Source: Escherichia coli
Lineage (GTDB): Bacteria > Pseudomonadota > Gammaproteobacteria > Enterobacterales > Enterobacteriaceae
NCBI RefSeq assembly: GCF_003334815.1
Contig: NZ_QOWO01000018.1
DNA: 64,000 bases
Strand: one strand, 5' to 3'
Made by a program: the position numbers and the translations under genes. The notes below the pieces were generated by a model. That model searched no databases. It was not told the DNA's origin and saw nothing but the letters and a program-made list of their open reading frames with translations. Every line of letters starts with the position of its first letter. The stretch's first letter is position 1. Below are positions 17,650 to 17,810 of the stretch, one piece after another.

Positions 17650-17810
17650 TGTCGGATGCGACGCTGACGCCCTTGTAGGCACGATAAGCGAGTGGACGGT
17701 GCACATAGTTTGGTTGATTAACCGTTTATAAACCGTCCACACGCGCATCGGGCAATGTGCACACGCTTGTTGTCGGATGCGACGCTGACGCGTCTTATCC
17801 GACCTACAAG
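17650..17810. repeat. Two REP-like units flanking a palindromic core
   Basis: gtcggatgcgacgctgacgc... units at both ends; central inverted repeat gtggacggt...accgtccac at 17692-17749. Confidence 0.6.

Follow-up and report, generated by a model that had tools for sequence, protein, structure and literature searches.

The locus considered here is the spacer between two co-directional genes of Escherichia coli, within a 64,000-nucleotide stretch of DNA that was analysed as a whole and is referred to below as the window. The upstream gene, lfgG (16857-17642 on the plus strand, with a TAA stop codon at 17640-17642), encodes the Flag-2 distal rod protein, is annotated as flgG, and was delimited from the list of open reading frames and from an annotated identical locus. 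The downstream gene, lfgH (17846-18511, plus strand, GTG start), encodes the Flag-2 L-ring protein, is annotated as flgH, and has homologues that carry PF02107 (FlgH). The intervening spacer is 203 nt long. E. coli 300709 has a 100% identical locus with flgG and flgH annotated, in a cluster that also contains lafA, a second fliI/fliJ set, flgN/M/A and a FliA-like sigma factor. This is the Flag-2 lateral-flagellar locus, and the placement of the spacer between lfgG and lfgH in the Flag-2 cluster, as given in a preliminary description of the window, is thereby borne out.

The preliminary description had drawn attention to a 9-bp inverted repeat in this spacer. The repeat is perfect, with arms GTGGACGGT at 17692-17700 and ACCGTCCAC at 17732-17740, both read on the plus strand; the arms enclose 31 nt rather than the roughly 40 bp claimed, and the right arm stops at 17740, short of the feature end that had been set at 17749. 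The enclosed apical segment (17701-17731) is A+T-rich and includes a small GGTT/AACC hairpin at 17712-17723 in the predicted folds. A second small palindrome had also been reported inside the repeat, and is indeed present as a perfect 10-bp GTTTATAAAC at 17724-17733 that begins in the apical segment and overlaps the right arm by 2 nt. It is specific to the window; this inner palindrome differs in every haplotype, reading GTTAGTAAAC, GCTAATAAAC or GTTAATGAAC elsewhere. The arms themselves are more stable: pairs one to eight do not vary among the six sequence variants, and the ninth is broken in three of the six, where T17700 is replaced by C.

The 9-bp repeat is contained in a longer, interrupted arm pair (17679-17700 with 17732-17753), each arm being 22 nt and the two 82% complementary. 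The resulting 75-nt hairpin (17679-17753) has a predicted RNA folding energy of -31.7 kcal/mol (z = -4.56, with none of 200 shuffled sequences folding as well), and when the 83-nt segment 17675-17757 was folded as DNA, either strand was predicted to form this hairpin too. Perfect 9-bp inverted repeats with loops of at most 40 nt are, taken alone, not rare in the window, where we counted 49 of them (nested ones included) against 11.9 +/- 4.4 expected from Markov-1 simulations; as a predicted fold, however, the full hairpin exceeds chance. One compensatory change, from C-G to U-A, separates E. coli from Escherichia sp. MOD1-EC7003 in the lower stem. The covariation score was reached by 46 of 500 shuffles, for an alignment of six closely related variants whose diversity is too low for power. 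The eight invariant pairs and the compensatory change could reflect some constraint, as far as six close sequences can tell.

REP-related sequence flanks the inverted repeat on both sides, as the preliminary description held, but only the right-hand of its two REP-like units (17772-17807) is a complete REP. This is a z-type element in inverted orientation (17771-17807, plus-strand coordinates), with a hairpin at 17772-17803 followed by CTAC at 17804-17807 and a predicted fold of -20.8 kcal/mol (z = -4.87). It is the sole repeat element retained in short alleles of the spacer, and the corresponding part of our query (positions 471-509) returned thousands of REP matches in E. coli genomes. The left-hand unit (17650-17670) is half a REP, again z-type and in the CTAC orientation, detected in a scan for REP halves through CGGATGCGACGC at 17653-17664. 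It is an exact 21-nt direct repeat of 17771-17791 at a spacing of 121. Since alignment with short alleles leaves 121 extra nucleotides in the window bounded by exactly this 21-nt direct repeat, the left-hand unit comprises only the left arm and loop of a REP.

The two 21-nt copies bound a 121-bp unit (17650-17770, plus strand) that varies in copy number and was recognized from the alignment, from Tandem Repeats Finder (TRF) and from the spacer sequences of other strains. TRF makes no call in the window itself because only 1.17 units are present there. The 100 nt of the unit that lie beyond the direct repeat (17671-17770) start with CTTGTAGGCACGATAAGCGAG and end with CACGCGCATCGGGCAATGTGCACACGCTTGT, and contain a third REP, in the opposite orientation, that the preliminary description had overlooked, followed by a head-to-head linker (17754-17770, AATGTGCACACGCTTGT) leading to the complete inverted REP. 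The linker has GTGCAC in common with a canonical linker at 20046-20057. The third element (17675-17753) is an atypical y-like REP with an expanded hairpin, opening with GTAG at 17675-17678 and continuing in a lower stem formed by 17679-17690 and 17742-17753.

Several observations support this assignment. The scan for REP halves gave a minus-strand match, CTTATCGTGCCTAC, at 17675-17688. In a MAFFT alignment, three canonical y REPs of the window (16788-16819, 14759-14790 and 20012-20043) align to both ends of 17671-17760, leaving a single 45-column gap at the loop. The dinucleotide AA (17686-17687) is unpaired opposite GC (17745-17746), at the same place as the mismatch in canonical GGATAAGGCG / CGCCGCATCC. 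The REP-half match, the alignment to y REPs and the retention of both the GTAG box and the AA/GC mismatch together indicate that the 9-bp inverted repeat prolongs the stem of this expanded REP upward. At the level of the transcript, structure prediction for the 203-nt spacer gives -77 kcal/mol (z = -4.83), compared with -36.9 kcal/mol for the short allele, so that a strong predicted fold, one of the properties suggested for this element at the outset, is indeed obtained.

Of 5,426 complete E. coli genomes, about 1,078 have the lfgG-lfgH region and 205 have the 100-nt segment, which is chromosomal throughout and never present more than once; the three copies that we opened all lie in the lfgG-lfgH spacer. 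Identity to the window is 99% or higher in most of these 205 genomes (148) and 95-99% in 56, and one is divergent. Among the roughly 1,078 genomes with the Flag-2 region, approximately 19% have the core of the expanded hairpin, 18% have another repeat in its place, and in the rest the spacer is short or of another kind; the unit is lacking from about 81% of the Flag-2 loci in E. coli. In what appears to be the commonest short allele, the spacer measures 82 nt and contains a single REP (TGTCGGATGCGACGCTGACGCGTCTTATCCGACCTAC). A 70-nt allele in E. coli S1-ESP-02-A (locus 644-713) has a 12-bp deletion that removes the top and loop of that REP (GCTGACGCGTCT), and because of this deletion its spacer is essentially without a stable REP hairpin. 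A 206-nt allele, represented by E. coli ECO_1_S (locus 644-849) and found at this locus in 190 genomes, has an unrelated, G+C-rich dispersed repeat in place of the REP. The replacement repeat is about 155 nt long, forms a long hairpin with GCCCTCTCCC...GGGAGAGGG motifs, and has copies outside this locus too, in more than 4,000 E. coli genomes that include K-12. An Rfam scan assigned it to no family, returning spurious miRNA matches only; it may be a Box C-type repeat.

The single divergent haplotype, in E. coli 2020CK-00188 (93% identity, locus 370-579), has CCAG in place of the GTAG box and a mutated half inverted REP (GCAATGC), from which the expanded-REP element appears to be decaying in this strain.

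A longer allele was found in Escherichia sp. MOD1-EC7003, where the lfgG-lfgH spacer reaches 468 nt (locus 1663-2130) and contains three tandem units (TRF period 122, 3.0 copies, 96% matches). Here the first REP is complete and lies tail-to-tail with the expanded REP (CCTACAAAAGCTCTTGTAGG), and the internal junctions of the array are the same half-REP junction that is seen in the window. The first of its units has AATT for AACC in the apical mini-hairpin, a change that keeps G-U pairing on the plus-strand RNA only.

Searches for the core beyond this spacer returned little. At E <= 10, the 5,426 E. coli genomes contained it at the same 205 places, with no other or partial match. Among PLSDB plasmids there was no significant match, the one hit being a chance-level alignment in Variovorax (E = 0.8) that lies mostly 3' of the core, and no match to the core was present among INPHARED phages. 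Three of 100,044 species-representative genomes contained an exact 18-mer taken from the core, namely MOD1-EC7003, a Loigolactobacillus and a Legionella; by our estimate the single matches in the last two are about the number expected by chance. All seven metagenome contigs that matched a tolerant pattern for the core proved to be the same lfgG-lfgH spacer with one unit.

For comparison with other Flag-2 loci we used contigs encoding LfgH homologues. Spacers in close relatives (LfgH identity 91-92%) measure 66, 95 or 142 nt and contain unrelated hairpins of their own, and relatives at 82-83% LfgH identity have spacers of 100 and 186 nt with one and three REPs, respectively, of their own types. 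In C. koseri, Enterobacter and Yersinia (70-72% LfgH identity) only 24-33 nt separate the two genes, leaving no room for a REP or hairpin. The core was absent from every other Flag-2 locus examined (Citrobacter-like, Enterobacter, Yersinia and other taxa). Conservation in other Flag-2 loci, whose absence the preliminary description had named among the grounds for refuting its proposal, was thus not observed, the core being found in 205 of about 1,078 E. coli loci and in none of these other taxa. Given the 24-33-nt spacers of distant taxa and the absence of the core from the other loci, the ancestral state was likely a tight lfgG-lfgH junction, and sequence comparison suggests that it was in Escherichia and near relatives that the spacer likely turned into a landing pad for repeats of the REP type. 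In one relative with 92% LfgH identity (CP069762.1, locus 1226-1486), all that is called as a gene upstream of lfgH is an 86-aa piece of the rod protein, its C-terminal part, which suggests that lfgG is disrupted there and possibly a pseudogene.

The lfgG-lfgH spacer is one of many REP-bearing gaps in its neighbourhood. In the Flag-2 region, REPs or BIMEs are present in eight or more of the gaps between genes (729-811, 7826-7887, 14727-14790, 16788-16819, 17650-17807, 19944-20143, 23550-23584 and 25857-25937), those within the lfgB-L operon including lfgD-lfgE, lfgF-lfgG, lfgG-lfgH and lfgJ-lfgK. This density of REPs is unusually high for a single gene cluster; a comparative paper on Flag-2 (PMC6993521) makes no mention of intergenic repeats. 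The lfgJ-lfgK gap (19944-20143) contains a tandem BIME of two approximately 118-bp units, in each of which a z2 inverted REP is followed by a palindromic, A+T-rich linker of 34 nt (GCGCATATTTTTATGTTTGCGC) and then by a y REP. In its second unit the y REP is truncated, showing the same half-REP decay as the lfgG-lfgH spacer.

Taken together, these observations make it likely that the inverted repeat belongs to an expanded, locus-specific REP within a copy-number-variable, atypical BIME of the Escherichia Flag-2 lfgG-lfgH spacer. Like y REPs as described by Bachellier and in PMC3333891, 17675-17753 is extragenic, has a GTAG box at its 5' end and forms an imperfect palindrome with an AA/GC mismatch, and at its ends it aligns with the canonical y REPs of the window. 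It differs from them in length, measuring 79 nt rather than 20-40 nt, the approximately 45 additional loop nucleotides adding a 9-bp stem and an A+T-rich tip, and in its stem, where GGCACG / CGGGC replaces GGCCGG / CCGGCC. It also differs in distribution: the expanded form occurs at one locus only, once per genome in 205 of 5,426 genomes, and only its ends match the multi-copy y consensus. The REP label for 17675-17753 is accordingly carried by its two ends, since 79 nt falls outside the 20-40-nt range and the expanded version is confined to a single locus.

A similar mixture of likeness and difference applies to the array as a whole. As in tandem BIMEs, REPs and inverted REPs alternate with short linkers, here in the order half inverted REP (17650-17670), REP (17675-17753), linker and inverted REP (17771-17807). 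As in BIME-2-type tandem arrays, units are well conserved within the locus and vary in number, with 0, 1 or 3 copies between strains and species. A truncated y REP also occurs in the canonical example at 19944-20143, two gaps downstream. Unlike a typical tandem BIME, the lfgG-lfgH unit has internal inverted REPs cut to half, so that it provides no clean pair of REP and inverted REP, and its linkers are not demonstrably S, L, s, l or r motifs (only GTGCAC is common to them and a canonical linker), nor do they contain an IHF site. According to Ton-Hoang et al. (2012; PMC3333891), the GTAG box and the stem mismatch are both required for binding by TnpA-REP, how many tandem BIMEs a locus has varies between E. 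coli strains while copies within a locus are well conserved, and strand transfer by TnpA-REP can assemble tandem copies in vitro. The expanded REP retains both features needed for TnpA-REP (RAYT) binding.

We hypothesize that units are gained and lost through recombination or replication slippage between the 21-nt direct REP halves, or alternatively through strand transfer by TnpA-REP (RAYT), as has been put forward for the amplification of tandem BIMEs. All of the alleles can be derived from an array like that of MOD1-EC7003 by recombination or slippage between the repeated left halves of the REPs: recombination between the first and last REP of such an array would leave the short allele with its single REP, and recombination between the first REP and an internal copy would leave the allele of the window. 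Candidate origins for the approximately 45-nt expansion of the loop are an insertion, or template switching within the quasi-palindrome.

The first of these candidates leads to the alternative that the 47-49-bp core is the footprint, or a miniature derivative, of a mobile element that entered the loop of a REP. The core sits exactly at the expected apical loop of the y REP in the MAFFT alignment, and its perfect terminal inverted repeats (candidate ends GTGGACGGTGCAC / ACCGTCCAC) start with TG and end with CA. IS3-family ends likewise begin with TG and end with CA. The extra DNA at the loop of 17675-17753 also recalls the insertions of IS1397, ISKpn1 and IS621, known to target REPs, which are documented targets of insertion sequences (PMC1525189). 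Unlike those insertions, the lfgG-lfgH core lacks a transposase, is flanked by no target duplication (GCGAG on the left, ACGCG on the right) and has no second copy in the collections searched, there being no further or partial match among the 5,426 E. coli genomes at E <= 10, the plasmids, the phages, the species representatives or the metagenomes. It is also far shorter than known MITEs. We tried a MITE or IS footprint as an identification and rejected it, since the inverted repeats are present but there is neither a flanking duplication nor another copy in the collections searched, and we regard a mobile-element origin as improbable.

The preliminary description had suggested instead a structured RNA element or a protein-binding site, which in its most explicit form would be a dedicated cis-regulatory hairpin setting the expression of rod genes (lfgB-G) relative to ring and hook-associated genes (lfgH-L). 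The strength of the predicted folds (17679-17753, z = -4.6; whole spacer, z = -4.8), the invariance of the stem arms with one compensatory change in the lower stem, and the presence of some hairpin in the spacers of several lineages near Escherichia would all be in keeping with such a role. The distribution of the core is not: about 81% of the Flag-2 loci in E. coli lack it (it occurs in 205 of 1,078, and 190 have the unrelated repeat instead), as do all other genera examined, among which C. koseri, Enterobacter and Yersinia leave only their 24-33 nt between the genes, and the inner palindrome is not conserved between haplotypes. Nor did scans of the spacer reveal regulatory signals. At a permissive E-value the sole Rfam match was naRNA4 (RF02564) at 17751-17804, scoring 31 bits against a gathering threshold of 59.5; this sub-threshold match is REP-derived and lies on the neighbouring complete REP, with none on the core. 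Scans yielded no sigma-70-like promoter on the plus (coding) strand of the spacer, no intrinsic terminator on the plus strand between 17500 and 17950, and no IHF consensus within one mismatch between 17640 and 17850, and by eye we saw no match to sigma-54 (GG-N10-GC) or sigma-28 spacing. For a non-conserved element with no Rfam family, promoter, terminator or IHF site, we give the proposal of a dedicated regulatory element little credence. Because the inverted-repeat region is the tip of a REP in a copy-variable unit that most Flag-2 loci lack, it is better described as ordinary repeat DNA than as a conserved regulatory element.

It is tempting to speculate further that the approximately 45-nt expansion is the footprint of a novel element or template-switch process that remodels REP loops, or else a lineage-specific module for RNA processing or stability, by whose unit number (0, 1 or 3) the balance between rod protein and the ring and hook-associated proteins of the lateral flagellum would be set, although we would place very little confidence in either idea. 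Were the RNA-module reading true, the lfgG-lfgH spacer would be a contingency-like VNTR for Flag-2 expression.

The remaining explanation, that the 9-bp inverted repeat is a chance feature without structural meaning, would draw on the dozen or so such repeats expected per 64 kb and on the breakage of the ninth pair in half of the variants, but seems to us the least credible of all, given that the repeat is in register with the lower stem of the REP to form the 22-nt interrupted arm pair, that the fold beat all 200 shuffles, and that eight pairs are preserved in every variant, including three diverged tandem copies in another Escherichia species.

If the hairpin is the extended stem of a REP, as we favor, the element need have no dedicated role in Flag-2, and any effect on expression is probably the generic protection of mRNA by REP hairpins. 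REP functions include mRNA stabilisation and attenuation (PMC3333891, PMC12306157). In the lfg operon mRNA the spacer is predicted to fold as a stack of stable hairpins, and by analogy these could block 3'-to-5' exonucleases, stabilise the upstream lfgB-G message, and modestly attenuate or uncouple lfgH-L. The arrangement resembles REP-stabilised mRNAs of the malE-malF type in being intercistronic, in lying in a co-directional operon, and in having a stable predicted hairpin. There is also a likeness to REP-dependent translational control near stop codons, for which PMC12306157 cites a REP within 15 nt of the stop codon: in short alleles the REP, and with it the first strong hairpin, starts 9 nt past the lfgG stop. 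In the window allele, by contrast, the stop is followed first by half a REP that lacks its partner arm, and the first strong hairpin begins 36 nt downstream. If the 15-nt range applies here, alleles with a hairpin 9 nt and 36 nt from the stop might show a slight difference in LfgG output.

Most Flag-2 loci can dispense with the element, which therefore carries little weight for flagellar biology. It is of more interest as a natural example of REP diversification, in which an expanded loop, half-REP junctions and tandem amplification are combined at a single locus, and as such is consistent with the model of diversification followed by amplification that has been proposed for BIMEs. The polymorphism of 0, 1 or 3 units, along with the alternative repeat allele, might also provide a convenient typing marker for Escherichia Flag-2 lineages. 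For annotators, the example suggests that palindromes in REP-rich spacers be read as parts of REPs before regulation is proposed. Two mechanically called minus-strand open reading frames of 63 and 51 aa (17626-17817 and 17718-17873) run antisense through this REP cluster, and were treated as spurious products of the repeats.
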